From IMG/VR virus record IMGVR_UViG_2077657010_000001, positions 1 through 64,000 of that record: a DNA stretch of 64,000 bases. One strand, written 5' to 3'. Positions 1,341 to 50,637 of this stretch are shown here, piece after piece; positions within the stretch are counted from its first letter, which is position 1, and every line of letters begins with the position of its first letter. The notes under the pieces are model-generated. The model was not told the DNA's origin and made no database searches. It saw only the letters and a program-made list of their open reading frames with translations. A program made the translations under genes and the position numbers. Source of the stretch: a virus.

Positions 1341-1613
1341 ATGTCTAAATTAAGCGCATGGGTTAAGTGCACCCCTAAAGCACGTCAAGATATCACTGCA
1401 ATCGAAGGTGGTGTCGAAGTAGTGGTACACAAGCAAGGTGACTTGTTAGAAGATAAAGCCACTTACACGGGCCCGTTCCCACGCGGCCATGCTAATGAAT
1501 GGGTGGCACATGCCAATGCATCTTATGGCAACGATGTCCATGCCTGGGATGTTATTAGCGAGAATGACATCCCTGAAGATGTTGAGTCTACGCGTATCGT
1601 AGAGCAGTGTTAA
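1341..1613 (+). CDS. Hypothetical protein
   Basis: SD GGAG upstream, terminator downstream. Confidence 0.7.
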   Translation: MSKLSAWVKCTPKARQDITAIEGGVEVVVHKQGDLLEDKATYTGPFPRGHANEWVAHANASYGNDVHAWDVISENDIPEDVESTRIVEQC

Positions 1614-1650: not shown

Positions 1651-1670
1651 GTCTTTATGGAGTAGTATAG

Positions 1671-20244: not shown

Positions 20245-23200
20245 TTAAACCTCTACATTTTTACGTGCGACTAAGATATATTTAAGGTATGAACTACCAC
20301 CGGACGTTTTAACTTCACCGCCATTGTACACAGACTCCATGCTTGCTTTAATACCATTATCCGATAGTGCGCCGTATATTAGTTTATGGCCACTGTCAGT
20401 ATAGTAACCTCGGTCGTAGCTAAAGTACACTGTACATTCACTCGCTTTAAACCCTGCGGGGACTGGCACGTTAGCACCCGGTCTAACAAACCCTTGTGTA
20501 AAAGCCGTTAACAGTCGGTTCTTTTCCGAGAATAGACGGAGCATGTCTGCAGATGCATAGTAGTTATCAATCTGCTCATCTGGTCTAAAGATATTACGGT
20601 AAGTAGAGTTTGGCTGTGACATTGAACCGTATCCGAAGCTACCGCCGGAACGGAACTTTTGAAGTTCTGGGTGCTCCATAACATTAAATTTCAATGTACT
20701 GACAATATCACTTGGACCATGCTTAGATAGGTCAGTAGATTTGACAAACCCTGTTGCACTCACCGTGAAATCATCACCTACCCGGTCAGCGGTAATACGT
20801 GACCAGTTACCACTCCACCCGCCTAAATTGCCGGTCCCGAGTGCGGATTTTTTAATCAACTTACGCGAGGGTTGGTGGTAGTTGTACCAGATGTCAAACC
20901 GAGACGCATTTTTAATGTGTCCTTCGGTTGAGCGACTCCTCACCGCACACAGTGTATGTTCCTGCCCATCAACAACCTTATATGCCAAGATGATAATAAG
21001 GCCATCATTATCATTGTGCGGCGACCCTACGAGGGTGTCAAAGTGATACTCCCCGACTTCTGTTGGCGATACAAACCCCACGAATGAACCGGAGTTAATA
21101 GGACAGATGATAGCATCGTTACCAGCATCATATTTCCACGATGATAATTCATCCGATTTGGCGGGTTGATTGCTACTATTGAAGATGTGTGAGATACGTG
21201 TCCAATTATCAAACACCTCCTTGAATGTTGGGATTGATAGGTCGTGAAACATCCCCATGTTACGGACTTTACCTAGACCGAATGCATCTTTAGAGACATT
21301 ATTAATCCCGCCATGCGCCATCTTGTTTTTGATGTGCTGTTCGAGCTCATAAATATTCCCCATACGTGTGGCACGTTCGACCTGGATATCAGTAATTCGA
21401 TCGTCCCCGGTAGTACAGTACCCCACATACATGCGATCTTTCCTGTCACTCAACTTACTCTCGTATAGAGTATACTGACCCTTACCATCGACCACTTCGA
21501 CATAAATGTAGAAGGTCTTATTTTTATACCCGTTGATTCCCGGATAGTCGGTGAGATCAATACTCTGTTTAGGGAGAATATAAGTGGTGCCATTGGTATA
21601 GAAACGTTCATCATTAGAGAAGTATATCACCCATCCAGATTTCACTTCAGACAACAGCAAGAGCTTAGTACCCTTACCCGCCATGTCTTTGTTCGGCTCA
21701 TAGGTGGTTGCACTTATCCCGTATGTTGAATACGAATCTTTATACCATAACAATCCTAGGTTTGGGTGGTATCCCCAACCATAGTTTCTATATGTATGTG
21801 CCTGATTAAAAGAGGACTTGATCGTATTATTTTTATTTTCATCAAGTATGAACATCGGCGTTTTCTGACCACTGTTACCAACATAATAGTAACTTGGTGC
21901 TAAGTTTAATGCGTAAAACCAGTTACCGTCATCTAACTTCACACGGATGGGGTTGGCTATACTATCGTCTTTTGTATCGATACCAGTTGGCGAGCCAATT
22001 TTACTGTACGATACCTCACGCCCGACAGCAATCGACGATACTGAACCACCCTCGAATGCTAAGTCAACACTATAAACTGACATCCTACCGGATTTTACAC
22101 CATTATTTTGTACTATGTACCAAATATACACAACAAAGGCATCATGCGCCCCTCGCCAATCCCCGAAGACCGTCATATTCACACGATCATTATCAGGATC
22201 CTCATTGTGTAGTTCAGAGGTACGGACTCTTAGGTCTGAGAGTAATTGGTTGATAACACCACTATCCCAATCCACAGGCTCTATGTAATTACCATTATCA
22301 TACTTAGAGTAGCATGTCCGCTCTGACTGGTTTAATACAAAACCCACGTTCTCACCCACATCCCAACATCTGGGAATGCGGATTATCTTACGGTAGGAGT
22401 CAAACGACTCACGATATGTCGTCGGTCCCCAACCATCGATGCCGTCATAACTGCCATTGATATCAACCGCAGCCACGAAATCCCCACCTGTACGTTGTCT
22501 ACAGACCATCTTATCATCACTAATAAATGTAACAGACCTGGCACCTTTCCCCACAATACTGCCGAAATTACCATTGAAATACTTACGGGATAGGAGGCGT
22601 AAGCTACCAGCACGATTAGCCAAGTTCATATCGTGCCACATGGTGCTACCGGCATTATGTGTAAATGTACATAATCGCCTGATATGATATGCACCTACTG
22701 TTACTGCCAGATGATCTGTTAAAATGTGTGCGGTTGATGTATGGTTAGGGGCAGCATACGGCCACATGCCACCAGTATTGAACTTTGATGTAAAGCCACT
22801 ATCTTTCAGTATGTTGGGATACATGCTTTCAGTGTCGCATGTAATCTCGAAAGTATCTAGGTCTACTGTAATTGTTGCCCCAATATTTCCATAAGCACTT
22901 CCAGTAGGGCTTGAAAAATATGACCGACCTGACTGCGTAACCCTCAGTTTCCCATCTTTCAAATACGCTAAGGTGTTACGGTGAGCGTGGGCGACGTTGT
23001 TGGAACCTGTGAATCTATCATCCTTTCTGAGTATTAGTGGCTTATCGTTTGGATCGCTTGAATGTCCAGTGTTTGTAAAAACAAACATATCCACATTCTC
23101 TTTACGGTTCCCGTGGAAATCCACTCCACTCAATAAGACCTCATTAAAGGCGACAGGCTTACCATCCTCGATATCCTTTCGCAATGCACGCGACATTCGA

Positions 23201-25347: not shown

Positions 25348-25421
25348 CCCATACTCCATGTCAGTTAATGTTATTAATCAAAGGATTCGTAGGCTAAGTG
25401 ACTACGAATCCCTGTTATGTG

Positions 25422-28400
25422 TTAAATATCACGTACCCCTATTAGTAAAAAGTTGACAAGCATAGGCTGAGTAATGTCGCCGCCAGCACCATCCTTCTCC
25501 CTCTTGTAATAACAGTCTGCAACGATGTGTCTGTCAGGGCTAGTCATGTCAATATTTCCTGTCATTTCTTTTCCTGATAGGTACGACTTCAACCCCATCC
25601 TAACACCGTCAATAGGGTTATTCTTGTTACTTTTATTCCCCCACCGTCGGATGCCATAATAAGCGATGTATCTTCGACACCCTTTTGGCAGTGGCAGTAG
25701 TCCAGATTTGGAGGTATCAACATATCCTTTCACTACGGGTAAATTTGAACCGTCTCGAATTGACATGTACACCCCTTCCGCTGTAACGTACTTATCACGT
25801 AGTCCACCGATATCCGAACCAATACAGTCAACAGTAAACGATAGTGCGTCATTACCTCCACGTGGGCGGGTAACAATGCCGACGTTCCCACCATCGATGG
25901 CGTTTTTAACAATACCGCTACCGTAGCCGACTTCTTCACGGCCACTATTGTAGATCTGTTCCTTTGAACCATTGTAGTAGTTAACCGTATATTTCATCTT
26001 AATGGCATCTGGAGCAAACACCATATCTGCAATATACTGATACAATTTACGGTCCTGTACGGCGTCGGTCTGTATATCAATGTTGTAAGCAGGGACGCCG
26101 CCATCTAAGCGGTAGCGAATAGTGACATAAAAGGTAGCTGCTGTGTTAATCTCAATGCTCTTAACAATGTACGATTTGATAACAGTTACGATATCGCCAG
26201 TTTCGTCAATAAGCAGTATCTGGAAATAATGTTTGTTGTCAGTGTCCCGACAATCAATGCGTGCGATAACGAAATAGATATTGTCGTCTTCGTCAACATA
26301 TTTGCCAATCACTGCGCCTACATCACGTATGGCGTTATCACCTGACATCGGTGCGGTTATTTTCCAAGAAACCAGTCGTTCGCCCTCCTCGTTGATAAAG
26401 GTGGGGTCCATAAAGTTCATGGTTGGGCTGGCTGCTGCAAAATAATGATTATCATTGGAAGTGCCTTTTAGCTCAACCGACACGCCATCATTTAGGTTGA
26501 CACCACTTTGGATGTAGCGATTCTCTGTCACATTGACTTCGTTAAAGTTATGTGCCATTACCCATTTACGGAAACCGTTATGTGAGCCATCGTCGACATG
26601 GTTGACTGCCTGTTCGTTCTTCACTAGACCCAGCCCGATAGTCGACGGATCTCCCATATCACCAGCATCTGAGTTCATATGTGCTTGAGGGTCGGTTTTA
26701 TGCTCTTCAAGCTCCCTAAACTCACCAACAGACGTCACAGGCTCAGGGACCAATAAATTTCGACCATGGTAATTACTGCGGGCTACTCTATCAATACTCC
26801 CCCAATATTCAGTGTTTCCTGGCTCGGGTAGCGGATTTGATTCGTCGTAAGGGTAACCATCTCTATCTTTGAAAACATAAAGATCCCAATTAGTAGTATC
26901 TGGTTTAGCGAGAACATTACCATCCTTATCCTCCACTTTTAGCAGCGCATTGTACCCACCACGACCACTATCGACGCAGATGGCGGCGAGCGTCATGGTA
27001 TCCCTTGGCGTGCTAACCACATACGGATCACTGTAAAAGCCATATCGAACTGGCTGCGGATTGCCATCAATGTAAACATAAGTGGTGTCGTCTACTTTTG
27101 ATGTAATCACACATTCGTCAACCCCTGTAGTATCTACAACTGTCTTGAAGACGACAGGCCCCCACCGAAACGGTTGTAAGTCAAATCGAGACCCTTCCAA
27201 TACTGGAGTCGATAATGGTCGCGCTTCATCACCCACACTGCTGGTTGTCCAGATAATGCCTTGATCGTCCGTTTCTATAGTTAACACATGCATCCGACTT
27301 GAATTATTGGGATATAACGTCACATCTACAGTGTATGTCAACGATCCCCCAATCACGTTGATATAAACATAAAAAATATTATTTACATGATTTTTAGGGT
27401 ACAGAGCTTTCAAGTCAAACGTCTTAGAAGGCATTTCGGTCTCACTGTCCGAATACATGATTTCGTTTTTATAAAAAACACAATCACTTCCAATTTCAAA
27501 CGTGAAACCCGTATACGGAATGCCGCTAGGTGCAGACCAGTACGATAAGTCAATAGCCGAGGCAGGCATCAATCCACGGAGACTATCTTCCGCATTACTG
27601 ATTTGCTCATCGATTTGTGTTATGACGTAAGGGGATGCTGCAGTGCTGCCTGTTTTCACCTCTTCGATATCATCAGCGATACGAAATATACCCCAAGTAT
27701 CTTCATCGGCCACATCCATATCCATATCTTTAAGATCGTGAACATGACCCTTTTTAGAAAACTGGTCTAGGTATTCCTGCTGTTTGATAGATATAGGTTT
27801 ATCTTTATCTGCAGTATTATCTACCTTGTCTAAGTAGATATCCGTTTTATCAAACGACATACCGTCGCGAATAGGGTAGCCATTGATAGTCTGGCTGTCT
27901 TTAACACGCCCACCCAGCCGCTCACGTAACATATATAACACTTTAGGTGTTGGTGCCGTGGCGATTGACTTTGAGTCAGGGTCGTCTGACAGTTTAATGA
28001 CCCCTCGCTTTGTCAATGTTGCCGTTACATATTTAGCATGTGCCTCTAACTTATTGTCCGGCCTAGAGCTCCCTGTAATATCTACAGTATCCGTATTTTC
28101 AGAAACAACACGCATGCCGGTACCACCCAACTTTTTCAGCATCTCACGCACATTTTCAACGTGGAGTAGTTGGTGGCCATTATACTTAATCGTATCATAC
28201 TGGTAGTTATTGCCTGTCGACACGATCTCAAGGACATTGTTACCGGCTTGCATGGTAACATTGGCATTTCCTGAAGCGTCATCATCGGCATATACTGCCG
28301 TTAACCCATCAGACGTGTATTCAATATTACCGTTATCTAAGGATACCTTACTCGTCCCGCTACTGCTCTTGATTGATAATGTACCCCCATCCAATGTGAA

Positions 28401-29216
28401 ATCATCATGGATGGTTTGATTAGTGGCCTTTTCTAAATATCGGTCTATATCGTCTTGAGTGATGCCACGACTATTGATATACTCTGCTAACTCGAGCAGC
28501 GTTAGGGTGTATGCTTGCATCGCAGATGCCGCGCGACCATCTTCAGGAAGTGCGTCTGCCTGTGTGTAACTAACCTTATGTGGATTAGCTTTATTCGCAA
28601 TGTGGCCTGCAAAGTCATACTGGTCTAAGATGCTATGGACTTGATCGATACGACTATTTAAATAATCGACCGCCTCAACGTCTGACGTGTCCATCGCTTC
28701 CTTAACCGCCTGCGTGATACCATCAATCGATGCTTCCACCCCCTCTTTGTTCACAAAATCTGCATAGTGCTGTTTGTGACGGTGTGGTGTGAATGTCATT
28801 GGTCTATCCAATAGACGTTCATATGGCGTCTTCACCGGGTCTGTGAGGACATTTGCAAGACGTGTAAGTACATCACTGCGGATACCAACAAACGTGTGGC
28901 CTACCGTCCGATAGTCAAGGATGAACTCACCCTTTAGTTCGGGGTTGATGATAGATATCCCCCCAAATAGCTTTCTCCCTGCGATGCGCCGTGCATCTTT
29001 TAGCTCCCATGCAAAGTTAAAGTCACTTCCCTCATTTAACTCTACTTGAGAATCTGCGTGAATTATTTTAAAATCATGTTTAAAGAACGGTGCCAATTCT
29101 GGGACAATCACACGGTACGTATTGTCGTTAGACATGACCATGTGACTCTCACCATGAATGTGGCACTCATCCATCGTACCCATTGGGTCGTGTGGATAAG
29201 TGACACGTATACTCAT
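25422..29216 (-). CDS. Tail fibre protein (paralog lacking the large central region)
   Basis: Shared N-terminal module, NPHKVSYTQ, LDKVDNTAD.DKP.S and GLGLVKN repeats. Confidence 0.85.
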   Translation of the reverse strand: MSIRVTYPHDPMGTMDECHIHGESHMVMSNDNTYRVIVPELAPFFKHDFKIIHADSQVELNEGSDFNFAWELKDARRIAGRKLFGGISIINPELKGEFILDYRTVGHTFVGIRSDVLTRLANVLTDPVKTPYERLLDRPMTFTPHRHKQHYADFVNKEGVEASIDGITQAVKEAMDTSDVEAVDYLNSRIDQVHSILDQYDFAGHIANKANPHKVSYTQADALPEDGRAASAMQAYTLTLLELAEYINSRGITQDDIDRYLEKATNQTIHDDFTLDGGTLSIKSSSGTSKVSLDNGNIEYTSDGLTAVYADDDASGNANVTMQAGNNVLEIVSTGNNYQYDTIKYNGHQLLHVENVREMLKKLGGTGMRVVSENTDTVDITGSSRPDNKLEAHAKYVTATLTKRGVIKLSDDPDSKSIATAPTPKVLYMLRERLGGRVKDSQTINGYPIRDGMSFDKTDIYLDKVDNTADKDKPISIKQQEYLDQFSKKGHVHDLKDMDMDVADEDTWGIFRIADDIEEVKTGSTAASPYVITQIDEQISNAEDSLRGLMPASAIDLSYWSAPSGIPYTGFTFEIGSDCVFYKNEIMYSDSETEMPSKTFDLKALYPKNHVNNIFYVYINVIGGSLTYTVDVTLYPNNSSRMHVLTIETDDQGIIWTTSSVGDEARPLSTPVLEGSRFDLQPFRWGPVVFKTVVDTTGVDECVITSKVDDTTYVYIDGNPQPVRYGFYSDPYVVSTPRDTMTLAAICVDSGRGGYNALLKVEDKDGNVLAKPDTTNWDLYVFKDRDGYPYDESNPLPEPGNTEYWGSIDRVARSNYHGRNLLVPEPVTSVGEFRELEEHKTDPQAHMNSDAGDMGDPSTIGLGLVKNEQAVNHVDDGSHNGFRKWVMAHNFNEVNVTENRYIQSGVNLNDGVSVELKGTSNDNHYFAAASPTMNFMDPTFINEEGERLVSWKITAPMSGDNAIRDVGAVIGKYVDEDDNIYFVIARIDCRDTDNKHYFQILLIDETGDIVTVIKSYIVKSIEINTAATFYVTIRYRLDGGVPAYNIDIQTDAVQDRKLYQYIADMVFAPDAIKMKYTVNYYNGSKEQIYNSGREEVGYGSGIVKNAIDGGNVGIVTRPRGGNDALSFTVDCIGSDIGGLRDKYVTAEGVYMSIRDGSNLPVVKGYVDTSKSGLLPLPKGCRRYIAYYGIRRWGNKSNKNNPIDGVRMGLKSYLSGKEMTGNIDMTSPDRHIVADCYYKREKDGAGGDITQPMLVNFLLIGVRDI

Positions 29217-29228
29217 ATTACGCTCCTA

Positions 29229-32200
29229 TTAAGTGCGTTTTACATTAATTCGGTCGTCGGTGAAATACGTCACAGTGTAATGGAGTGGGTATTTAGTATG
29301 ATACACAGTCCAACTCACCATTGCCTTGACATACACCTTAGCAAGGATATTGCTACCTGCATCCTCGGTACGGAATAAGCTTACAGAAATACCTGCGCCA
29401 GAATCTTGAGCTTTTGATGGGTTGATTTGGACGATATACTTGTAACCTTCCATCCCCTCAGCTTTAGGGATGAGTAGCTCAGACCATTGATCGTCATCTG
29501 AATCCGTACCCGGCATCATTACCTTCCCCGATTGGACATGCATCCGATTGGACCAACTGTGCAGGTTACGGTACAGCTCCATGGATGCGTAATACCCACG
29601 ACCATCTTCATCAGGGCGAATGATGTTACGCCATGTTGAGTTCGGTTGCGAGCGCGCTATATATCCAAACTTATTCTCACCTCGGAACATCTTCAGATCA
29701 GCATTACTTGATATATCAAGCGTATGCTTAATATCTGTACCGCCTTGCCCTCGGAATTTGGTGGCTTCAATTGTGAAAATATCACCGACACGTGTTATTG
29801 ATAATACACGTTCTGGAATTTGATCCCAGCCATATTTACCACTATGACCTTTAAAGCTAGCTAACACATTACTCTCATTGGGTGTAGAGTGTCGTAAATA
29901 CCCGTGAACGCTATGAGTATCTGTACCACACACATCGAATGATAACATATGCGGCTCGCCATCAATTTCCTTATATGCAAGTATTACACCAATGAAGTCA
30001 TCGTCCGCACTTGTAGATGACACACCTGTAATGAAACGGTAGTCACCAACCACATCAGGACTGACAAAACCGACCCATGAGGAAGAGTTGGTGGTATTAC
30101 GCATCTGGTCTTTCGATGCGTTAAACGACCACGTTTCCAACTCCTTAGGTATTGCTGGGAACGAATTGCCCGCTTGGTATGAAACACGCTTCCAGGTATT
30201 GAACACTTCCTTGAATGTCGCAACCTTCAGGTCATGCTTCATGGGCTTATTCTCAACCAACCCTAACCCTAAACTGTCTCGGTTGATTTTAGACATATCT
30301 AAGTCGTGTGGTGTTGGGTCTTCTAAGTGTTGCTGGAACTCTCTAAAACTACCTAGACGTGTCACACGTTCGGCCTCTAGTTCTATAATACTAGTATCAT
30401 CGGTTTTACAATAACCAATATATACAGTATCTGAACTATCACCCACCTTATCCGGTCTGATGATGTATCGTGGATTTCCTCCCTGCGCAGTCACATATAA
30501 GTAGAATGTGTTCGACTTATAGGTTGTTGGGAAATTGTCCGTGAGATCAATAGCGGTTTCAGGGACATTATACACTACGCCACTTGTAAAGAATTTAATC
30601 TCTTGTGTGAAATAGATATTCCACCCAGAGGCGACTTGTGATGTATGTAAAACAACTTTACCATGTGTAGTACCATTATCGATAAAATCCACCCAGGTGT
30701 CTGCAGTTTTACCGATTTTGTTACCGAGCACTGCTGTGAACGAGTTATCTTGGATTTGCTGGACAAGACCATACTCTTTGGTGACGCTCAGAGCGCGATT
30801 GGCATAATAACTATAGGTATTATGTCGCTTAAACTTATCCACCTCGCCTGTGTCTAAATCAACGACCGCCAAAAACCCATGGTGTCCAGTATTAGCGTGT
30901 AATGCTAAGCCCTGATTGAACGCGACCAGTACCTTGCCCGCTACCCTATCGTACATGATACCACCATTGGACACCCAGCTACGTGGATAACTGGACGTGC
31001 CGCTAGGACTGGTTATTGTTCTCGGCTCGATTATATAATCTTTAACCTTAACATTCCCGACATCTCCCTCTCTCGGACAGTCCTCTAAAGTACCCGCGCA
31101 GTATGTCGATAGATAACCGCCCCCTATCTTATCATGTAACCCTCCACCGATAAAGAATGGCGGGATAGCTTTATCTTTAGGTATAAGGATAACTGCGCGC
31201 GCATATTTAAACGGGTGATCTGTTTTAATTTTCTTTAGCTTTTCACTCACCTCGCGTTCTAACGATTGTAGGTTATCATCAGTGATGGATAGCTTACCGC
31301 TGAAATCAAACCCATCACCCGCAGTGTAGAAGTTTTCTTTGACATGACCATTAAGGACACCGCCAATTAACTCCTCTTTATCGCCATCGATAACGTAAAC
31401 ATTCCTACGCAATCTAATATCATCATCCTTTGTACGGTCAGTGGTCGGGCCAAAACCACCCAGTCCATTTTTGTAGGTATAGTTAGGCTCATAACGGCAA
31501 AGATTGGAGCCATTATCTGCAAGCAGATAGTTGTTAGGTAGGAATGACAAGTGCTTTTGCATCGTTGTTACAATACTACCAAAGTTACCTACAATTCTAC
31601 GGGAATTCCCAATATGATCAATGCGACGTGTATCAGCATTGAGACTATCGAAATAACTATCCGCTTCCCACGATTGGGCAACTACTTTGGGTGTCCACTC
31701 GTTAAACGTTCGCATCACAAAAGCGTATTTACCGTCAGAAACTTCTATACCATATGTGTTACCACTGTGACCATACATCCGCTGAAAGGTACTATTGCGC
31801 GTCGGCCCGCCATACGCCCCTTTTTCACGGCTAACATAAAACGGGAAGTTATTATTAGGATCAACGACCTGAGTGTTGTTGTCTAGGTTTATAGTAACAC
31901 TATATGACCAATTACTGCGGTGTGAGCCGTTCGAACTGTTGTGATAAGTTCCAACCGATACAAATAAGCGTAATCTATTACCTTCCAACCAACTTGCTAT
32001 TCCAAGACCATTCCAAGTAATGTTGATATTGTATTCGGAAGATTCCCTCACACACACCACATTTTCATTAGGATCGTCCGACCAAGATTTATCTGCAAGT
32101 TTTAACTCATGTCCCGATCGCGGCTCGCCAAAGAAGTTGTCGCCACTAAATGTAACTTCTTCAGGGATAACGATGTTGAAATTGTCAAACTCACTTAGCG

Positions 32201-34388
32201 GAATACGATGGAAGGTATGCCATACCCCACTAGTCCGGTCAATAACAACCTGGACAATGTAGCAATATTCCCCATAAATGAAGGGTATAGCGTCACCGTA
32301 AAACACGCCATCCACAGCAACACATTTATGCTGTTTTCCATCACCCGTACCGTTGAATAACGTCACCAACTTATAGGTTTTATTACCATTGGTTGCGTTC
32401 AGTATCATTGCGGTTCTAGATGCCCTGTACGAAGACTTTACATCCCAACTATCTGGAAGGTTCCCTGGTCGGTATTGTAATGCAGTGGCCACTAAGTTAC
32501 GCATACTACCATCATTGTTCAGATCTGCATAACTGTAAAACACACCGGACATATCAACATCTGCACCGTTTCGGTAAATAATGAGACGTTTACCATTTTC
32601 AATGTATGCAGACACTACTCGGGTTCTGCGCTGGTGTCCTGAACCTTTATACGAACCTTGAACAGGTACGGGCAGCCAATCATTACCACCATATTGCGTA
32701 ATATTTAATGCATCTGATGGAACATGACGTTTAGCAGATTCAACGATGTTATCTGCACGGTCACGCAAGAGCTTCGCCATCTCAAGTGAGACAGTGATCT
32801 CACGATCACGTACACTTTCATCATCCGTAAACTTGGTAATACCTAATACGGTAGGCGTAGCATTAGGGATACCCATCTCTTCAAAGGTGTGGCTATGCAA
32901 ACCGATGGCTTTACTGTCCATCACTTCAATGTGGTTATTATTCACCGGCATGTCTTTATCAGACAAGTTGTGCACGTTACCTAAGTTTACATCGTCTGCA
33001 TCAATTTCAATATTACCTGTCAGGGGCTTGCCGTTTATTTTACGGCTAGTTGGTACCTTGCTACGGATTATATCCGCTAATTGGCCAGTGGCCTTACTTC
33101 TCGCGACTTTGGTTTTATCCGTACCATCGATTTTATCTGACGCTACCGCATCACCTGTAACCACATCCGTGGCTTTAGGGACATACACTTCCATTTTAAG
33201 CGGATCACCACTAACCCCTTTCCCACTAAATTTGAGTGAGGGTGTATCTTTGGTGTGTATATCAATGATGTATGTACCTGCATCCGGGAAGCGCTCGTTG
33301 AGGTTTCCTTCATGCAATATATGTTTATCATTGATTAACAAGTCATCTGTTTTATTTTTGCCACGCGATGTGATAGTTAAAGCGTTATTACCTGAGACCA
33401 GACTTAGCTTCAAACCTGGGTGTTTTTTCTCAGCATCTGCATGAATATATGCACCGACTTTACCTGACGTGATAAAGTCATCAGACATGGCTTCCATCTG
33501 GAATTGTGTTTCATTGTCTTTATCAAATCCCAATACAGCCAGACCGTCCTCAAGTACAATATCTCCTTTAAATACATTCCCACCCCGTAATAAAGCAAAT
33601 GGGGCCAGGTCGTCCTGTACAATACCGCGTTCATTGATATATGTGGTGAGTTCGTCAATCAACATACCAAATGCGCGATATGTATCTTTAGCCACACCTT
33701 CTTTATGTAACGCGTCTGCATGATACCACTTTGTCCCGTGTGGGTTGTCGGTATTATCGCCGTGGGTCAATAATGTAGAATCATCCACATCTTTTTTAAG
33801 GCGCTCAAACCAATCTACCATGATTTCATAAAGGTCATGGTTCTGTGGATCTTTATTGCGGATAACTTCTGCAAGTTTATCTAGGCCTACTTGGAGATCT
33901 TGCTCATCAATAAAGCTTTCACGGTCAAATTGAATTTCTACATCTGGGAAGAATGGGTCATCATTTAATACCATTTCCCATGATTCTAATGATGGATCTT
34001 CCATGCGATTGTTGAGGTAATCGTCAATCACCTCACGAGACGCCGTGTATTTCCATCCTAGCGTATGGCACGTGATTTCTAACTCACCGTGTAGGTTAGG
34101 ATTAATGATCCACACACCGCCATTCAGACGCTTACCCGTTTGAAGAATACCACGATGGTAACGGTGTGTGATGTAATAGTCTACACCTTCTGTAAGTTTA
34201 TTACCGTCTAACTTAACATCTAATACCTCATCATAAAAGAAGGGTGCCGCATCAGGGATGACAACACGATAGTACCCCACCGTTTCAAGCGCTTTATTGC
34301 TTGATGCTTTTGATAGGGTATAACTCGCAGTAACAATGTTATTTTTGTTACTGTTATGCGGGTCAAAATCATACGCAAATTGGGGCAT
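29229..34388 (-). CDS. Long tail fibre / receptor-binding protein with C-terminal thrombospondin-C-like domain
   Basis: ATG 34388 after GAGG; NPHG.., LGNVHNLSD and LNITQYGG..LPVPV.G.Y shared with 20245-25347. Confidence 0.85.
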   Translation of the reverse strand: MPQFAYDFDPHNSNKNNIVTASYTLSKASSNKALETVGYYRVVIPDAAPFFYDEVLDVKLDGNKLTEGVDYYITHRYHRGILQTGKRLNGGVWIINPNLHGELEITCHTLGWKYTASREVIDDYLNNRMEDPSLESWEMVLNDDPFFPDVEIQFDRESFIDEQDLQVGLDKLAEVIRNKDPQNHDLYEIMVDWFERLKKDVDDSTLLTHGDNTDNPHGTKWYHADALHKEGVAKDTYRAFGMLIDELTTYINERGIVQDDLAPFALLRGGNVFKGDIVLEDGLAVLGFDKDNETQFQMEAMSDDFITSGKVGAYIHADAEKKHPGLKLSLVSGNNALTITSRGKNKTDDLLINDKHILHEGNLNERFPDAGTYIIDIHTKDTPSLKFSGKGVSGDPLKMEVYVPKATDVVTGDAVASDKIDGTDKTKVARSKATGQLADIIRSKVPTSRKINGKPLTGNIEIDADDVNLGNVHNLSDKDMPVNNNHIEVMDSKAIGLHSHTFEEMGIPNATPTVLGITKFTDDESVRDREITVSLEMAKLLRDRADNIVESAKRHVPSDALNITQYGGNDWLPVPVQGSYKGSGHQRRTRVVSAYIENGKRLIIYRNGADVDMSGVFYSYADLNNDGSMRNLVATALQYRPGNLPDSWDVKSSYRASRTAMILNATNGNKTYKLVTLFNGTGDGKQHKCVAVDGVFYGDAIPFIYGEYCYIVQVVIDRTSGVWHTFHRIPLSEFDNFNIVIPEEVTFSGDNFFGEPRSGHELKLADKSWSDDPNENVVCVRESSEYNINITWNGLGIASWLEGNRLRLFVSVGTYHNSSNGSHRSNWSYSVTINLDNNTQVVDPNNNFPFYVSREKGAYGGPTRNSTFQRMYGHSGNTYGIEVSDGKYAFVMRTFNEWTPKVVAQSWEADSYFDSLNADTRRIDHIGNSRRIVGNFGSIVTTMQKHLSFLPNNYLLADNGSNLCRYEPNYTYKNGLGGFGPTTDRTKDDDIRLRRNVYVIDGDKEELIGGVLNGHVKENFYTAGDGFDFSGKLSITDDNLQSLEREVSEKLKKIKTDHPFKYARAVILIPKDKAIPPFFIGGGLHDKIGGGYLSTYCAGTLEDCPREGDVGNVKVKDYIIEPRTITSPSGTSSYPRSWVSNGGIMYDRVAGKVLVAFNQGLALHANTGHHGFLAVVDLDTGEVDKFKRHNTYSYYANRALSVTKEYGLVQQIQDNSFTAVLGNKIGKTADTWVDFIDNGTTHGKVVLHTSQVASGWNIYFTQEIKFFTSGVVYNVPETAIDLTDNFPTTYKSNTFYLYVTAQGGNPRYIIRPDKVGDSSDTVYIGYCKTDDTSIIELEAERVTRLGSFREFQQHLEDPTPHDLDMSKINRDSLGLGLVENKPMKHDLKVATFKEVFNTWKRVSYQAGNSFPAIPKELETWSFNASKDQMRNTTNSSSWVGFVSPDVVGDYRFITGVSSTSADDDFIGVILAYKEIDGEPHMLSFDVCGTDTHSVHGYLRHSTPNESNVLASFKGHSGKYGWDQIPERVLSITRVGDIFTIEATKFRGQGGTDIKHTLDISSNADLKMFRGENKFGYIARSQPNSTWRNIIRPDEDGRGYYASMELYRNLHSWSNRMHVQSGKVMMPGTDSDDDQWSELLIPKAEGMEGYKYIVQINPSKAQDSGAGISVSLFRTEDAGSNILAKVYVKAMVSWTVYHTKYPLHYTVTYFTDDRINVKRT

Positions 34389-34489
34389 ATGTGTTACCTC
34401 TAAATAGTTAATCTTTATACCGAGTGGCCTTTCCATCCGCACCACCCGCACCTACATATTATGACATCCACATTGCTTTTGGAGTACAC

Positions 34490-36421: not shown

Positions 36422-36451
36422 AAGAGGGAGCATTAGCTCTCTCTTTTTTTT
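36422..36451 (+). terminator. Intrinsic terminator; 30-bp direct repeat copy A
   Basis: AAGAGGGAGCATTAGCTCTCTC-T8, identical to 37248-37277. Confidence 0.9.
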
Positions 36452-36477: not shown

Positions 36478-37236
36478 ATGACTACCAATATTAAAACTGA
36501 GGATCTTATTGCGTTCTCAACACGCAACGAGTTTTACACTAACATTTACATTGGACGCCACATTGCAACCATTCGTTGTAACAGACTACCTAAAACTGCT
36601 GTGAAGGCACTAAAGCAGTGTGGTCTAATACCGCACAAGTTAATTGACTTAGATTTCAATATCGGACTGGCCATAGTGGGTGACAATTATGCCTTTGTGG
36701 ATAAAGAATATCTCGACGATGATCAATGGCGTGGTATTGTTGTCACCAAAGAGCAGCTGTGCGATGTGTTCTGTATTGATGATATAGACATGTATGTTGA
36801 TCACTTAGATAGTGAGCACACTATGAGACTGGCAACGTACGAATCAGAAGACTTTTCCAGTGCTGAACACCTCAACAGTACTGTGACCAAGGTATTCAAT
36901 AACTTTAATATCATACACGCCATGCTCAGCGGACACACCCCAGAAATGAATACTGAGGTGCTTGTTGACGTCAAAGACACAATCCTCGATAAATCCATTG
37001 CAGAAGGACACGGTCGCCTATGTTGGGGGCGTATCGTTGGACATTCCAATGATGAGGTTATTGTTCAAATCGACAATAAGCAATTCTACTGCGCTGCGGG
37101 TAACTCAGTTAACCATTTATTCGCAACGGAGTTGTACGTTAAGGATAAATGTCCAACAACCTACTATGAGGTCGGTGATGTATCCAACCATAAATCCCGC
37201 ACAATGAATGCATTTCTTTCATTGTGTAAACGTTAG
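36478..37236 (+). CDS. Hypothetical protein flanked by identical terminators
   Basis: SD TAAGGAG; 252 aa. Confidence 0.8.
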   Translation: MTTNIKTEDLIAFSTRNEFYTNIYIGRHIATIRCNRLPKTAVKALKQCGLIPHKLIDLDFNIGLAIVGDNYAFVDKEYLDDDQWRGIVVTKEQLCDVFCIDDIDMYVDHLDSEHTMRLATYESEDFSSAEHLNSTVTKVFNNFNIIHAMLSGHTPEMNTEVLVDVKDTILDKSIAEGHGRLCWGRIVGHSNDEVIVQIDNKQFYCAAGNSVNHLFATELYVKDKCPTTYYEVGDVSNHKSRTMNAFLSLCKR

Positions 37237-37247
37237 TATAAGCTATT

Positions 37248-37278
37248 AAGAGGGAGCATTAGCTCTCTCTTTTTTTTT
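37248..37278 (+). terminator. Intrinsic terminator; 30-bp direct repeat copy B
   Basis: Identical to 36422-36451, with one extra T. Confidence 0.9.
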
Positions 37279-37531
37279 GCCTATTTTGTTTTCCCCTCAC
37301 TCTTCTTCTCTTTCTCTTCCCCCCTTTAAAATCCCCCTTTCTCTATCTCTTCTTCTCTCTCCCCTTTCTGGTCGCCTCTCCAGTCAGGGCCCCCCACATA
37401 GGGGCCCCCTTCCCAAGGAGCGGCTCAAAGGCGTCTTCAAAAGAAGACTAAGTGCGTAAAAAAATACAGGAAGTCTTCTAATCTCCCACGTATAAGATGT
37501 GGTATATACGTGGGTAGTAGATTAGAAGACT
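37263..37531. other. Non-coding polypyrimidine tract plus hairpin cluster (origin or ncRNA candidate)
   Basis: 37263-37369 has only 9 purines in 107 nt; hairpins at 37387-37407, 37433-37448 and a 23-bp stem at 37472-37531. Confidence 0.6.
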
Positions 37532-37542: not shown

Positions 37543-38550
37543 TTAATGGTTACTTGATCCGTAATGAATGTAATCACATTTTATATTTTTTGCCATTAAT
37601 TGGCCTGTCACTGACACATTCGATCCAAATATTGCATCTCCTTGGACTTCACAGCCGCCTCCTGCTGATGCACCGCCGCCGCCGACTGATAGGGCGGCAC
37701 ATGACAAGAGTCCCGTACAAGCCGTTTTAGGGGCATTAGATGTTACCTTATCAGCATTGAATGTAATTTGCTTTCCATTGATGGTGGTGGTATCAGTCGT
37801 CGCTGTCCATGTTTTCGTTTTGAATGTCATGGATTTACTGGCTTCCACTTTAAAGTCTTTACACTTAAAGGAGATGGTATTGACTGCGGTATAATTGATA
37901 CTGTCAGGGGCATAAGCATCAATACACTTTTTATCCAACTTAAGGTAAGTGCCATTCTCATTCTTAAAGCCGATAACCGTTTCATCACTGTTCATGTACA
38001 TGATGTTACCGACATTGTCTTGGAGGGTAAAGAAGCCTTCACCTGTATTGAGTTGTAAGGTGTATGAGAAAGGTTCACCGTTGGCCATGGAAGTTTTTAA
38101 TGTAATGTGCTTATCATGGGTAGATAGCTCTAACCAGTATGCGTTAGAGAGGTCATCTTTGATTGGGTTATCGGGATCGGCTGACCATGCATACAGTTTG
38201 GTCTCTAATCGCTTCACATTGGAGATATTGAAATCTGTCCAAAAGTAGTTATCCGTATCCCCTAACCGCCATATCAACACATGGTCATTTCGACGCACAT
38301 CTGGGGCAAGCATCGAATTAGAGTTGAGCTTTAACCATTTAGCTGGAATACTGTTGGTTCGTTTAACCTTGATGACTTCAGGTCCCTCATCCGTATCGTA
38401 CTGGTCTTCCACCAAATCAACCACATCCAATACATCCTCATCGATACTCATACGGTATTCGATAGGGAACACACGGATAGTTTTCGTGTTCCGAGGTTTA
38501 TTTCTAGCAACCAACCCCCAACTATGGAAATGTAATTGTGATAATTCCAC
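37543..38550 (-). CDS. Baseplate central spike protein (phiKZ gp164-like)
   Basis: OB-fold-type N-terminus (AKWL...PDVR..D.V.IW), beta-helix repeats, tapered Gly-rich C-terminus; lies near SbcC as recalled for phiKZ. Confidence 0.75.
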   Translation of the reverse strand: MELSQLHFHSWGLVARNKPRNTKTIRVFPIEYRMSIDEDVLDVVDLVEDQYDTDEGPEVIKVKRTNSIPAKWLKLNSNSMLAPDVRRNDHVLIWRLGDTDNYFWTDFNISNVKRLETKLYAWSADPDNPIKDDLSNAYWLELSTHDKHITLKTSMANGEPFSYTLQLNTGEGFFTLQDNVGNIMYMNSDETVIGFKNENGTYLKLDKKCIDAYAPDSINYTAVNTISFKCKDFKVEASKSMTFKTKTWTATTDTTTINGKQITFNADKVTSNAPKTACTGLLSCAALSVGGGGASAGGGCEVQGDAIFGSNVSVTGQLMAKNIKCDYIHYGSSNH

Positions 38551-39410: not shown

Positions 39411-41909
39411 ATGAGTTTGACCTTTGAGAGTATTGAACTCATCGACTTTGACCGTATGGCCTTGAATGGTATCCGCCGATTTAAGTTGACATTAGATAAG
39501 ATGATCACCCTTATCCTCGGTCGTAATGGCTGTGGTAAGTCTAGTCTTCTTGAACAGTTAACGTTAATGTGTCCCGATAAAGATGACTATAGTGTAGGCG
39601 GTGGCCGTGTTATCTGGTTTGTCTATAACGGCAGACGGTACCAATCTACTTGCATGCTAAAAGGTAAGTCGTTCAAATGCACCATCAGTGATGATACTGG
39701 TCATGTCTATTGTGATAACGTAAATCCAAAAGTCTATCACCTCACTATTGAAGATATGTTTAACTTCAATCGGATTATCAGTGATATCATCACTGGACGT
39801 TATTCCATCACGTCAATGAATACCACTGAGCGTCGTAAACTCTTCACTGCGATTACTGAGTCCGACCTCACCTATGCGTTGAAGTTTTACAATAAAGCTA
39901 AATCCAAACTTAGAGATTCAATCGGTACAACAAAGTGGCTTAAAAAAGAAATCGGCACATTGAAAACACAAATCATCAATGATGAAGATGAAATGAAAGC
40001 CACCAAGGAACGCATCGAAACCATCAAAGGGGAAATTGTTAAGCTTGATGAGCAGATACAATACATTACCAGTTATATCCCCACGATTAAGCTATCGCCT
40101 GAGAATGCTGAGAAACAGCTTGAATCGCTCAATGACACGATGTTGGGTATAGATATACATTATCCCACATTAGTATCTGGCGTTGAACCTGATGCGATAC
40201 AGAGCGAAATAGCCCGCATTGACGGTAGCCTTTCTCAGATGAGTGAACAGTTGGAAGATTTGGACAGTCGTATACGTACTGCAAAAGAATATGACGCGAC
40301 TGACGTGGACGCATTAAAGCGTGAATTGAATATCGTCAATACCTACCTTGTAGCATGGCCAGAAAAATGTGCTCCGTTTGATAATTTGCTTAATCTAAAC
40401 GAAGATACACTCAAGATGGCCAGTAACCATTATGAGAATCTAACCGGCACGCTATATAATTATATTAATGCCTTGATGCCGTACAATGATATTATCGCAG
40501 ATTGTGGCCAACAGCTTGATGTCAAATTCCAAGAACGTAATAAGGTATTAGCTGAACGTGACCGTATTGGGATGCAATGTAAAATGCTGCGCGAGGAGAT
40601 TGAGCAGTTAAAGTCGGTGCAAGATGTCACGTGTGATAACTGTGGTAATATATTTAAGCCGGGGCACCGTAATGTTACCGTAGAAGATCATACTGAAAAG
40701 CTAAACACATTGATCGGTTATTATGATGATTTGGACAATCAATATAAAACATTGTCTGAAGAAGTATCACGTCTTAATGAAGCCAAGCTATGTAAAGACA
40801 AGGTATTCTCACAAATCCATGAGATGTCTAAGTACCCAGCCTACAATAAACTTCTTGTCCAGCTACATACCGACACTGAAAAGTGGACTGCATTTAACAT
40901 GACAGTCATCTCATCGACTATCAACCAGTTCGGAGATGCACTCGCGTGGGCGATGCGCATCAATGACTATAAAGCGAGGGAAACCAAACTTAAAAATGAT
41001 ATCGAGATTGCGGTTGCGACACAAGTTGAAGATATCGATGCGTTAACTAAAAAGTATAATCAGGCCTCTGACCATTGTAGTGAATTACAACGTAAACGTA
41101 ATTTACTGGTCACTGACATGAATACCTACACACGCTATGCAGATAACCTTAACCGTGTTAATGATATTGGTGAGAGAATACAATCTCTTAGTGAGGAATG
41201 GCAGAAGGGTCATGTTAAGCAAAACTGTGAGGCGATTATCGGTAATCTTACCGAGCAGCGTGACTCATGGTGGACGGTGTTAGCTGAGGCCAATAAACGT
41301 TTCAATGAGATGGATGGCCAACGCAAGAAGTTGTCCATGATGGAACAGCAGTTGGAAGATTCTACTGCTTCAGTTGAGCGTTTGACTAAAATCGTTAAGG
41401 CGATGTCACCTGACGAGGGTTTGCTCTCTAAATACCTTTACCAATCCATTCGTCGCATTGTCTCACTCATGTCTGAGTTTATCTCACACATTTGGGGATA
41501 TGAGATGAAAGTATTGCCTTGTGATATCGAGGATGGTGAATTGGATTATAAATTCCCCTACGTGATACCCAGCAGCGGTGTAGAGCGTAAGGATATTGCA
41601 AAATCCTCTTCTGCACAATTAGGGGTGTTTGACTTTGTATTCATTCTTGCTACTTACCGCGTAATGGGTTTAAAAGGTTATCCATTGAAAGCGGATGAGA
41701 CATTGTCTGCATTTGATGATGGTCACCGTGACAGTGCTATCAATTTTATTAAGACGATTGTAGCCCGAGGCGATCATAGTCAAAGTCTTATGGTTTCTCA
41801 TGATGCAGATACCCACTTTAAACTCACTAATGCAGATAACGTTGTGATTGACCCAGAAGGTATTGTACTACCACCGGAGTATAATGTAAATGTTGAAATC
41901 GACTACTAG
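39411..41909 (+). CDS. sbcC: SbcC/Rad50-like SMC ATPase
   Basis: Walker A GRNGCGKSS, long coiled coils, CDNC zinc hook, Walker B-like LKADET, VSHD H-loop. Confidence 0.9.
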   Translation: MSLTFESIELIDFDRMALNGIRRFKLTLDKMITLILGRNGCGKSSLLEQLTLMCPDKDDYSVGGGRVIWFVYNGRRYQSTCMLKGKSFKCTISDDTGHVYCDNVNPKVYHLTIEDMFNFNRIISDIITGRYSITSMNTTERRKLFTAITESDLTYALKFYNKAKSKLRDSIGTTKWLKKEIGTLKTQIINDEDEMKATKERIETIKGEIVKLDEQIQYITSYIPTIKLSPENAEKQLESLNDTMLGIDIHYPTLVSGVEPDAIQSEIARIDGSLSQMSEQLEDLDSRIRTAKEYDATDVDALKRELNIVNTYLVAWPEKCAPFDNLLNLNEDTLKMASNHYENLTGTLYNYINALMPYNDIIADCGQQLDVKFQERNKVLAERDRIGMQCKMLREEIEQLKSVQDVTCDNCGNIFKPGHRNVTVEDHTEKLNTLIGYYDDLDNQYKTLSEEVSRLNEAKLCKDKVFSQIHEMSKYPAYNKLLVQLHTDTEKWTAFNMTVISSTINQFGDALAWAMRINDYKARETKLKNDIEIAVATQVEDIDALTKKYNQASDHCSELQRKRNLLVTDMNTYTRYADNLNRVNDIGERIQSLSEEWQKGHVKQNCEAIIGNLTEQRDSWWTVLAEANKRFNEMDGQRKKLSMMEQQLEDSTASVERLTKIVKAMSPDEGLLSKYLYQSIRRIVSLMSEFISHIWGYEMKVLPCDIEDGELDYKFPYVIPSSGVERKDIAKSSSAQLGVFDFVFILATYRVMGLKGYPLKADETLSAFDDGHRDSAINFIKTIVARGDHSQSLMVSHDADTHFKLTNADNVVIDPEGIVLPPEYNVNVEIDY

Positions 41910-49035: not shown

Positions 49036-50637
49036 GTGACGACAATGCATTACAAATATGCTGTAATATATACTGATGGTGGTGAATATCAGAATATGGC
49101 CGGTGCAGGTATCCACGGATACTTGTTTAATGATTTACCCGCAGTAAGGTTTTCAAAAGTACCTGCGATTATTACACCATCTGGGTATGAACCTAAGCCG
49201 TCAGGTGCGCAACTTAAAGATGAGGCATACAACCCTACTTATAAAGAGTGGGACGTGTCTGTTTCACTACGTGACACCAAAACAGCCATAGCGTCAGGTG
49301 CCGATGTGAAAATTGTTGATGGTTGGTTGCCTTTACCGGGCGGCACATCACAATACGCTGAGCTGACCGCTTTCCTTTGGTTATTCGAACAAACTGAGTT
49401 CACATTCGAACATCTCATTGTGTATAGCGATTCCAATTATCTTGTTAAGGGTATCTACGAGCACCTCAAACAATGGATAAAGCGTGGGTGGAAGAAGCGC
49501 GATGGAATGCCTATTGCAAATCCTGAACTGTGGGTTAAGATCAATGAGGTTGTAAATAACCCAGACTTCTCAGAAAGTCGTGTAGAAAAGATTGCTGCCC
49601 ACAAAGGTCACTATGGTAATGAATGTGCTGACCGAAACGCAACCATGGCACGCTACATGGCAGCTAATGGATACCATGATTGTAAAATCAATATCGCTGA
49701 CGTTCACGACTTCGATTACTGGGAGCCTGTTAAAGATTTCCCACCACTTGCAAGTCAAAAGTGGCTAGTCAGCTTTAATGAACGTATTCGTGATAAAAGC
49801 GAAATTGATGGAGAAGTCTACAACCATTACTTCTTTGCAGACCACACTAAGGAAAACAATCGTCCAGACTTGTTAGCGAAGTTCATTTCTGATGCGAACT
49901 ATTGTCTGTACCTTTGCAAGGAACGGATTAACTTCGTGGATGACATCATCGACAAACACCGTGAGATGATGTGGCGTGGTACGTGTGAGATGTATCAGTC
50001 TGAATTGGTTAATCTTGTTAATATGACCAACTTACAGATGCCTAAAAATCTATGGGAGCTTAAGCGTGGGCCTGCGGGTGCGATGGGTTTGTCTGAAGAC
50101 CGTTGTGAACTAAAAGGGGCTAAGGCTGAAAATGTCATCTCACATGTCATCAATCCACCAAAACTCTCATATCGGGTAGAAGAATACGAACTTCAACACC
50201 GTGAGATTATACAAAGTTATCTGGCTAAGTCTGGTCGCCGCTTTACAGGTGACGATAACTTCCGTCCATTTAATATCGTTGTTAATGACATCACAGACAT
50301 CTTGTATGATGATGCTGTTGATAAGAAAGGGAATGTGTCGGGTAAAGTGTTATCCGATACATATGGGCAAGTGACTCGCATGTTGGATTTCCATGTCCAT
50401 CATCCATATAGTGATAAGACTGCTAAAGTCATCTTAACCTCTAAAGAAGACTTACCAGAGCGTAGCCTTCTCACCAAAATTAAAGATATGAACCCTAAGG
50501 TTTCCATCATCACATGGATACACACTGGGTACAAGATTAATTATGGTACATTGGTCGAGTATGACGACGGAATCGCACTGTGGACGGCATATGGCTCTAC
50601 ACGGGTACTGACTAAGGAAGAGCAAGGTATCGCTTAA
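49036..50637 (+). CDS. rnhA: Ribonuclease HI (phiKZ gp155-like) with C-terminal extension
   Basis: IYTDGG, AEL.A, YSDSNY, W..RGWK..DG.PIAN.ELW, AHKGHYGNECAD. Confidence 0.9.
   Translation: MTTMHYKYAVIYTDGGEYQNMAGAGIHGYLFNDLPAVRFSKVPAIITPSGYEPKPSGAQLKDEAYNPTYKEWDVSVSLRDTKTAIASGADVKIVDGWLPLPGGTSQYAELTAFLWLFEQTEFTFEHLIVYSDSNYLVKGIYEHLKQWIKRGWKKRDGMPIANPELWVKINEVVNNPDFSESRVEKIAAHKGHYGNECADRNATMARYMAANGYHDCKINIADVHDFDYWEPVKDFPPLASQKWLVSFNERIRDKSEIDGEVYNHYFFADHTKENNRPDLLAKFISDANYCLYLCKERINFVDDIIDKHREMMWRGTCEMYQSELVNLVNMTNLQMPKNLWELKRGPAGAMGLSEDRCELKGAKAENVISHVINPPKLSYRVEEYELQHREIIQSYLAKSGRRFTGDDNFRPFNIVVNDITDILYDDAVDKKGNVSGKVLSDTYGQVTRMLDFHVHHPYSDKTAKVILTSKEDLPERSLLTKIKDMNPKVSIITWIHTGYKINYGTLVEYDDGIALWTAYGSTRVLTKEEQGIA

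Follow-up and report, generated by a model that had tools for sequence, protein, structure and literature searches.

A conserved polypurine mirror-repeat module with a structured core beside the spike gene of a pVa-21-like chimallivirus

The tract downstream of the spike gene and the module around it

The DNA considered here is a stretch of 64,000 nucleotides (nt) of viral origin (positions 1 to 64,000 of the IMG/VR record IMGVR_UViG_2077657010_000001, called the window, from whose first letter coordinates are counted), and the element in question is a polypyrimidine tract situated in a 306-nt gap between two convergent open reading frames (ORFs), one at 36478-37236 on the plus strand (ORF252, 252 amino acids, aa) and the other at 37543-38550 on the minus strand. 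The latter codes for a spike or baseplate-puncture protein of 335 aa (phrog_3216 baseplate assembly protein, E 2.5e-96; its score of 25.1 bits against PF18715 Phage_spike is under the 28.2 cut-off). An earlier note on this DNA had described the interval 37263-37414 as one strand-biased tract, and its counts have been confirmed: positions 37263-37369 of the plus strand contain 9 purines in 107 nt, CTCTTCTTCTCT occurs twice (at 37300 and 37347), CCCCTTT occurs three times (at 37321, 37334 and 37361, out of five occurrences in the whole window), and C-runs are located at 37293 (C4), 37319 (C6), 37333 (C5), 37361 (C4), 37390 (C6) and 37405 (C5). Windows of 107 nt have a mean of 53.4 purines (standard deviation, SD, 6.1), and 37263-37369 lies more than 7 SD away, being the minimum of both the 64-kb window and the contig to which it belongs. 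The tract is also as singular as had been claimed, because 40-nt windows with at most 5 purines are found in the contig solely at 37259-37385; the sole 40-nt window with at least 35 purines (73719-73758) resembles a Glu/Lys-rich coding stretch. The interval is not a single tract, however: its low-purine part stands, but positions 37374-37424 form a conserved stem-loop and positions 37263-37279 belong to the T-run of a terminator. A coding reading was rejected, the single ORF over the tract being a 60-aa TTG-start Leu/Ser/Pro-rich frame on the plus strand whose sequence is unconserved in the Vibrio phage pVa-21.

Judging from the comparisons below, the pyrimidine tract is best described as the template strand of a module, conserved and non-coding, that is carried by a pVa-21-like chimallivirus. 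This module occupies about 230 nt of the minus strand (that is, the sense of the spike gene) and is composed of a small hairpin, an invariant core, a polypurine tract of about 90 nt and a terminator. It is preceded by a long near-perfect hairpin (37472-37531; an inverted repeat with 18-nt arms, 89% complementary) followed by a U7 run (37456-37470), and this structure (37456-37531, minus strand) is the probable terminator of the spike transcript; pVa-21 has another long hairpin at the equivalent position. Next comes, from sequence reading, a small 6-bp hairpin (37433-37448, minus strand) on the 5' side of the core, and a small hairpin of differing sequence is found at the same position in both pVa-21 copies of the module. 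The sequence GTCTTC or its complement GAAGAC is present in four copies within 100 nt (37433-37531, minus strand), in the stems of the small hairpin and of the outer portion of the long one, and a further copy pairs with 36843-36854 as an inverted repeat. The conserved structured core (37374-37424, minus strand), delimited by 8-mers and a predicted fold, is followed by a 5' purine arm of 36 nt (37332-37367, minus strand, mirror score 27), a 6-nt A/T spacer (TTTTAA, 37326-37331) that is the centre of mirror symmetry, and a 3' purine arm of 36 nt (37290-37325, minus strand), of which 33 positions match the 5' arm read backwards. Finally, the terminator scan gives a 10-bp stem (37248-37271) with a T9 run, together 37248-37279 on the plus strand, which closes the early ORF186-ORF252 unit on that strand and constitutes the module boundary on the minus strand. 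Stem and T-run have the form of an intrinsic terminator, which covers only 37263-37279 of the interval described earlier.

The Vibrio phages pVa-21 and pVp-JHP1101 (JHP1101), both chimalliviruses, contain the same module 3' of their spike gene, with a shared order in the spike sense: long hairpin, small hairpin, CCTTGGGA, GC-rich hairpin, GACTGGAG, a purine tract of 80-130 nt, and a hairpin with a T-run. In fact, each of these genomes (about 230 kb) contains exactly two stretches with at least 37 purines in 40 nt, on the same strand and both with the core. The second copy (c2, the spike-linked one being c1) lies in a 1.5-kb island without coding sequences (CDS), where both 8-mers surround a minimal GCGAAGC hairpin and are followed by an even longer purine tract; it is therefore not the 3' untranslated region of a gene. 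In pVa-21 this island (178662-180182) also contains other GC-rich, apparently structured segments and a pyrimidine-rich stretch on the same strand (local positions about 2960-2840, where local 1663-3183 corresponds to 178662-180182), and it may encode further RNAs. In JHP1101, the second module is immediately followed by an inserted 380-aa ORF (locus 464-1606, minus strand), which has a ribosome-binding site of its own and replaces the terminator tail of pVa-21. The 98-kb contig of the source phage has one copy of the core. Its 3' end is syntenic with the second purine module of pVa-21, so that a second copy is likely to exist in the source phage beyond the contig end and may be the reason why the assembly broke there; the last letters (98300-98322, outside the window) break off at ...TCTCTCTCC / ...GTCGATCTCTCTCC just past a terminator.

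Metagenome contigs about 90-93% identical span tract and core in four of four runs (three studies). These relatives carry other hairpins at the terminator site, all with a T-run after them when read in the purine sense, and those without ORF252 still hold tract, core and spike gene as a single block. Conservation downstream of the spike gene, which the earlier note had proposed as a check, has thus been observed in pVa-21, JHP1101 and independent metagenome contigs, and because of this neither of the outcomes that would have spoken against the element (absence from relatives, or an assembly artefact) applies. Nucleotide searches against phage records (megablast and blastn) returned only pVa-21 and JHP1101, and only in the coding part of the spike gene, and the pVa-21 island had no match in phage records beyond these two phages. 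Pattern scans of IMG/VR gave at least 119 and 3 stretches, with no purine tail among the matches listed, and a scan of 185,579 prokaryote genomes gave 21 matches with at most 65% purine downstream, none of them real; both collections possibly did not cover the closest records. Scans with the spike protein found no locus in IMG/VR or in the prokaryote genomes, and one locus in metagenomes, in which the contig end falls before the element. In the literature searched, which left most subscription journals outside, no purine mirror repeat or polypurine element of a phage or jumbo phage is described.

In the core, CCTTGGGA and GACTGGAG are identical in the window, in both pVa-21 copies and in both JHP1101 copies, and the hairpin between them (P2) has between 2 and 9 bp, its sequences in the window, pVa-21 c1, JHP1101 c1 and pVa-21 c2 being unrelated. 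The consensus fold consists of P1 (CUCC/GGAG plus a variable extension), a UU bulge, GG/CU, a tandem GA/GA, a closing pair and P2, the invariant parts being CUCC-UUGGGA and GACU-GGAG on either side of the variable hairpin. The closing pair is A-U in the window versus G-C in pVa-21, a compensatory change. This fold is the minimum-energy structure in the four sequences just listed, with energies (purine sense/antisense, kcal/mol, RNA parameters) of -32.2/-24.6, -34.8/-21.2, -30.4/-17.4 and -11.1/-8.7, so that the purine sense is more stable by 2.4-13.6 kcal/mol, a preference that fits the G-U and tandem G-A pairs available in that sense only. The pairs come from hand reading and folding (the MAFFT alignment shifted the pVa-21 core by one column), and the support that three independent copies lend to the structure is suggestive. 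Folds of whole-module RNAs gave modest z-scores (-2.2, -2.7 and -1.8). With both thresholds used, Rfam had no family at gathering score in the window, CsrB/Rsm families included; its best match by E-value, a miRNA-family model on the long hairpin, was judged spurious. The islands of pVa-21 and JHP1101 had no Rfam match at E <= 0.1, and no tRNA or tmRNA was found by scanning.

Mirror symmetry and a putative purine-motif triplex

H-DNA is defined by a purine/pyrimidine tract with mirror symmetry. On the minus strand, 82 of the 90 nt at 37280-37369 are purines, and the mirror repeat of the window (36-nt arms about TTTTAA, 33/36 matches) reaches a score of 27, as compared with 7.8 +/- 1.4 in shuffled sequences (0 of 300 attain it). 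The second copy of pVa-21 has 37-nt arms (extending to about 53 nt with one gap) around the spacer TGTTTCCAAAGA, with 31/37 matches and a score of 19 (shuffles 7.0 +/- 1.3), and c1 has 31-nt arms around TTGTTA, with 25/31 matches and a score of 13 (shuffles 6.1 +/- 1.3). Under Markov nulls of order 1, 2 and 3, these scores were reached in 0, 0 and 0 of 500 sequences for the window and likewise for c2, and in 1, 1 and 25 of 500 for c1. Direct-repeat scores of the three copies were not significant (p = 0.10, 0.26 and 0.04), which means that simple tandem repetition does not account for the symmetry. When 120-nt windows were slid along the sequences, the score of 27 was followed in the contig by a next-best value of 11, and the top three windows of pVa-21 were the modules. 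Mirror symmetry has been retained in three diverged copies despite their differing primary sequences.

The interruptions of the symmetry are also informative. All 12 arm mismatches of pVa-21 (6/6 in c1 and 6/6 in c2) consist of a T in the 5' arm facing an A in the 3' arm, as do the four of JHP1101 c1; the 3' arms of pVa-21 contain no pyrimidine, and the chance of every T facing A rather than G is about 5e-4. Moreover, the c1 tracts of pVa-21 and JHP1101 differ at three positions, all of them A<->T changes in the 5' arm or its inner edge. Such a T-opposite-A rule is what selection for a purine-motif triplex with the 5' arm as third strand would be predicted to leave, and by the triad rules it would misfit the pyrimidine motif. 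In passages of PMC11667243, the triads of the H-r triplex are given as CG*G and TA*A, with TA*T tolerated, and hybrids of purine RNA with DNA are described as the stronger kind. The same passages state that H-motifs impede transcription elongation when the purine strand is the non-template one, with formation of triplex and R-loop, and describe the H-loop, in which nascent purine RNA pairs with the pyrimidine half that has been set free, so that an R-loop stabilises the triplex. The three features of an H-r element are all found in the module: a strand-pure purine run, mirror symmetry beyond what composition yields, and interruptions that fit reverse-Hoogsteen triads (G*GC, A*AT, T*AT). The potential for triplexes and R-loops that had been attributed to the tract is thus present as a sequence signature, and a stronger one than was claimed then, since mirror repeat and triplet-compatible mismatches come in addition. 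Taken together, the module is probably a conserved element selected to form a triplex.

Known elements of this kind share some of these properties. Polypurine reverse-Hoogsteen hairpins (PPRHs) are designed oligonucleotides, and like them the module has two antiparallel mirror purine arms joined by a short T-rich loop. With the H-DNA motifs and H-loops of (GAA)n and (AAGGG)n, as described in passages of PMC11667243, it has in common a strand-pure tract, a mirror about a short spacer, tolerated mismatches and a purine strand that is non-template for the likely transcript. Unlike (GAA)n and (AAGGG)n, however, its arm is a unique and complex sequence of 36 nt instead of a tandem repeat and has been kept as a mirror in diverged phages; unlike those H-DNA examples, it comes together with an invariant core, a promoter-associated motif and a terminator, its setting is a lytic phage where theirs is a eukaryotic intron or promoter, and the third strand that it implies is the 5' half, not that of the H-r3 form. 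Another example is provided by the bacterial intrastrand triplex motifs PIT, BoxC and TMECO, which, as far as the parts of Holder et al. (2015; PMC4666352) describe them, are likewise mirror purine tracts at gene ends beside hairpins. These motifs are found in many copies, and a single DNA strand supplies the whole triplex in the form of two purine blocks and a pyrimidine block, whereas the module has two copies per genome and its purine strand contains no pyrimidine block of arm length, the sole run being the 8-10-nt 3' arm of the terminator hairpin. What appears to be new here is the coupling of an element of the H-motif or H-loop type to a conserved structured core as a phage module.

Source phage, neighbouring genes and transcription

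The source contig is 98,322 nt long (CheckV completeness 42%, no terminal repeat) and is colinear with the region from 93.5 to 176.6 kb of pVa-21. A search with the spike protein matched 290 jumbo-phage records, at the top of which were pVa-21 (58.7% aa identity) and JHP1101 (56.7%); protein identities between the source phage and these two are only 45-59%. From the spike and RNase H matches, the colinearity and the completeness value, the source can be identified as a fragment of a chimallivirus (phiKZ-like) of about 230 kb, a distant relative of pVa-21. The RNase H gene and the SbcC-like gene that the earlier note had placed in the window are both there. The former (49036-50637, plus strand, 533 aa) has PF00075 at residues 102-205, in its N-terminal part, followed by a long C-terminal part; it matches 300 jumbo-phage records (174 over at least 80% of the length), best those of pVa-21 and JHP1101 (45-46%), and by this architecture, which is that of the chimallivirus RNase H-clamp, it is classed as Rhc-like. 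The latter occupies 39411-41909. Elsewhere in the window, three very large paralogous virion or tail-fibre-like genes (20245-34451, minus strand; 1704, 1264 and 1740 aa) share N-terminal parts assigned to phrog_7449, phrog_7557 and phrog_8078.

On the other side of the tract, a perfect direct repeat of 30 nt (terminator hairpin plus T-run, at 36422-36451 and 37248-37277) brackets ORF252. In two runs of one metagenome study, a contig fuses 36443 to 37271 and has no ORF252, with tract, core and spike gene kept together, and on account of the flanking repeat and of these contigs ORF252 may be regarded as an early-gene cassette that is gained or lost via recombination between terminator copies. 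No Pfam or PHROG family was found for ORF186, ORF252, the 220-aa ORF or the 380-aa insert of JHP1101.

An early-type promoter consensus is common to the source phage and pVa-21 and consists of a AGTAAAAA-like upstream element followed by GATATATATC. The motif TTTCAGATATATATCAT has 9 sites in pVa-21, all on the plus strand, and exact copies on the plus strand of the source phage at 14069 and 35780 of the window and at 97823 of the contig, each of which precedes an identical 5'-leader hairpin (TGAAGAGAGAAGACAATCCCTCTTCA); single-mismatch variants are located at 3498, 11560 and 50997. The promoter at 35780 is the one that drives ORF186 and ORF252. As for the module, an 11-mer (TGTACAGTAAA) occurs three times in the 232 kb of pVa-21, where about 0.1 would be expected by our own estimate; two of these sites precede the two modules, and the third falls within the upstream element of the promoter at 6006. 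After this 11-mer, and at the appropriate distance, the pVa-21 modules agree with the -10 block at 6/10 and 7/10 positions (by-eye alignment). The pyrimidine-sense direction is shut by a strong terminator in every copy, and in pVa-21 and the metagenome relatives the purine-sense unit ends in a hairpin with a T-run.

A possible role in replication and its alternatives

According to parts of two preprints of October 2026 (PMC13648698, PMC13648687), chimalliviruses possess a split B-family polymerase and a DnaB-like helicase, with no identified primase or clamp, and a multidomain RNase H (Rhc) is a subunit of their polymerase. Rhc is compared there to retroviral reverse transcriptase (PMC13648698), and one of the two preprints speculates that abundant RNA-DNA hybrids could supply initiation sites (PMC13648698 / PMC13648687). 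Matches to DnaG_N and Prim-Pol, the only primase families searched, were found in none of three records (the contig and the complete genomes of pVa-21 and JHP1101). An R-loop-primed origin, which had been offered among the possible functions of the tract, therefore remains plausible in view of the triplex and R-loop signature, the conservation, the reported lack of a primase together with the RNase H, and the absence of DnaG_N and Prim-Pol matches; as a general proposal for the family, on the other hand, it does not stand, as will be seen below. The steps could be as follows. Transcription of the module in the purine sense would leave a purine-rich RNA on the pyrimidine template, and the 5' purine arm would fold back onto the duplex of the 3' arm through reverse-Hoogsteen triplets (G*GC, A*AT and T*AT), giving an R-loop locked by a purine-motif triplex, that is, an H-loop. 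The locked RNA-DNA hybrid might then give DNA synthesis its starting point or its primer, with the invariant core as a recognition or processing site. This whole chain, from triplex and H-loop to the priming of replication, is a tentative proposal, though the likeliest of the functions weighed here, and a more specific version, a self-locking R-loop origin in which a short transcript recognised through its stem-loop would be trapped by the triplex and trimmed by Rhc to a polypurine primer, is more doubtful.

R-loop-primed origins are exemplified by RNA II of ColE1, by oriF and oriG of phage T4 and by mitochondrial CSB II. As in these systems, the module would produce a transcript that runs from 5' stem-loops into a G-rich or purine-rich segment held on the template, with participation of RNase H; there is no sequence similarity to them, and unlike them the module is a candidate origin known from sequence alone. 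To our knowledge, a lock made of a mirror-repeat triplex has not been described in the ColE1, T4 oriF/oriG or CSB II origins. Another parallel is the retroviral polypurine tract (PPT), also a purine-only RNA-DNA hybrid with A-runs and G-runs that is served by a polymerase complex carrying an RNase H domain, although here the tract belongs to a double-stranded DNA phage with no reverse transcription, and it is about five times longer and mirror-symmetric. A triple-helix-forming purine tract has also been reported as an essential part of the lytic origin (oriLyt) of Epstein-Barr virus; unlike the module, it has no known counterpart of the invariant core, and there is no homology.

Several observations weigh against this chain from triplex to priming. 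No comparable non-coding tract was found in phiKZ, 201phi2-1, EL or Caitlin, and thus the element cannot be a general chimallivirus origin; SPN3US has only an A-rich tract, which was not examined further. The sole purine-rich 40-mer of phiKZ (265774-265815, minus strand), with GACTGGAG and a GA-run, is inside the CDS PHIKZ292 and was dismissed as a chance match. A check of the genome skew, as suggested earlier, does place a broad minimum of the cumulative GC skew at the site (34-40 kb in the contig and 108-112 kb in pVa-21, with the module inside), but the main change of gene orientation, from minus to plus strand, falls at the module too, and since the skew is confounded by gene orientation and the direction of transcription, it is not independent evidence. 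The second copy of pVa-21 is not at a gene-orientation switch and would prime head-on into genes 191-194. In the window, the copy has neither a sigma-70-like site nor a match to the early-promoter consensus, and its RNA could consequently come from spike-gene transcription that continues beyond the long hairpin and U7. The arm mismatches of the window are T/A, A/T and A/G, with one T per arm, so that the T/A asymmetry is not seen there. There are just three independent copies, and the structure statistics rest on few lineages. A stable purine-motif triplex with an RNA third strand is doubtful, from which it follows that the third strand must be DNA. Finally, passages of PMC11667243 state that the H-r3 isoform prevails in supercoiled DNA, yet the T/A pattern implies that the 5' half is donated as third strand; such a donation would fit formation behind a transcribing polymerase better than static supercoiling.

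Other explanations have to be considered for the same module. It might represent two paralogous genes per genome for a trans-acting non-coding RNA of the phage, the core of which would bind a phage or host protein and the single-stranded GA-rich tail of which would titrate a host RNA-binding factor, possible targets being CsrA (bound by GGA motifs), the distal face of Hfq (bound by A-R-N repeats) or 16S rRNA at its anti-Shine-Dalgarno end. The layout does resemble a transcription unit, preceded in pVa-21 by a promoter-associated 11-mer and followed by terminators; the core is invariant, with a compensatory closing pair and a better fold on the sense strand; and the second copy is alone in its CDS-free island. 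The pVa-21 tails are also rich in GGA motifs (about 9 and 10 by our own count, versus 4 in the tail of the window), but the more than twofold difference between copies, like the lack of conservation of the tail sequence and of any Rfam match (CsrB/Rsm included), argues in the opposite direction. More importantly, a protein sponge leaves unexplained the mirror symmetry, the T-opposite-A rule and the restriction of A<->T changes to one arm, and this explanation is considered unlikely. Alternatively, the module could be a one-way barrier to transcription at the DNA level, which would stop minus-sense spike or late transcription from entering the plus-sense early genes and would back the hairpin terminators. 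Its place between convergent units, directly before a terminator, agrees with this. So does the purine sense: in the window and in pVa-21 c1 the spike transcript arrives in that sense, and passages of PMC11667243 describe elongation as impeded, through triplex and R-loop formation, if the non-template strand is the purine-rich one. A barrier is nevertheless hard to reconcile with the presence of two elements per genome of about 230 kb despite many convergent junctions and abundant ordinary hairpin terminators, with a second copy that has no upstream gene of the same sense to insulate, and with the invariant 22-nt core and the upstream hairpin, for which it has no explanation; its probability is judged to be slightly lower again.

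The module could also lack a dedicated function and be a selfish intergenic repeat or a structure-prone hotspot of recombination or instability, in which case the fork stalling and DNA breaks that H-DNA motifs cause would account for nearby indels. Indels do occur beside the copies (ORF252 with its 30-nt repeats, absent in relatives, and the 380-aa ORF of JHP1101), the contig ends at a position syntenic with the second copy, and H-motifs are tied to genome instability in parts of PMC11667243 and PMC4666352. Against this, position, core, mirror symmetry and triplet-compatible mismatches have been kept across lineages whose proteins are 45-59% identical, and there are two copies per genome, with none found in the other collections scanned; a hotspot is therefore very unlikely. 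Least probable is a packaging (pac) signal, a genome-anchoring site or a G-quadruplex element, for which the runs of G4-G6 at six places of the minus strand, and nothing else, can be adduced. The G-quadruplex that had been suggested for these runs was not borne out: they are not conserved (the spike-linked copy of pVa-21 has mostly GG), the loops between the four tail runs of the window measure 9-23 nt, and neither in the window nor in pVa-21 c1 is there a conserved set of four G-runs of at least 3 with short loops, as an intramolecular quadruplex would need. Nor is any terminase-related feature or genome end nearby, in a contig that is 42% complete and has no terminal repeat. As compared with a terminator or a sponge RNA, a priming site fits better with two copies per genome, a recognition-like core and a structure that would trap RNA.

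If the more specific version with trimming by Rhc were correct, a nucleus-forming DNA phage would use a retrovirus-style PPT priming, and this would account for primase-free replication in at least one chimallivirus lineage. The module is in any case a concrete, sequence-defined candidate for a replication start in a cultivable pair, pVa-21 and Vibrio alginolyticus, and it specifies two sites per genome, their predicted strand and their predicted structure, as well as the mutations predicted to break it (loss of symmetry) or to leave it intact (A to T in the 5' arm). Whatever its function, it would be a clear natural case of selection on mirror symmetry and on substitutions compatible with reverse-Hoogsteen pairing, and this pattern of selection may be taken as evolutionary evidence for a purine-motif triplex in vivo in a bacterial virus.

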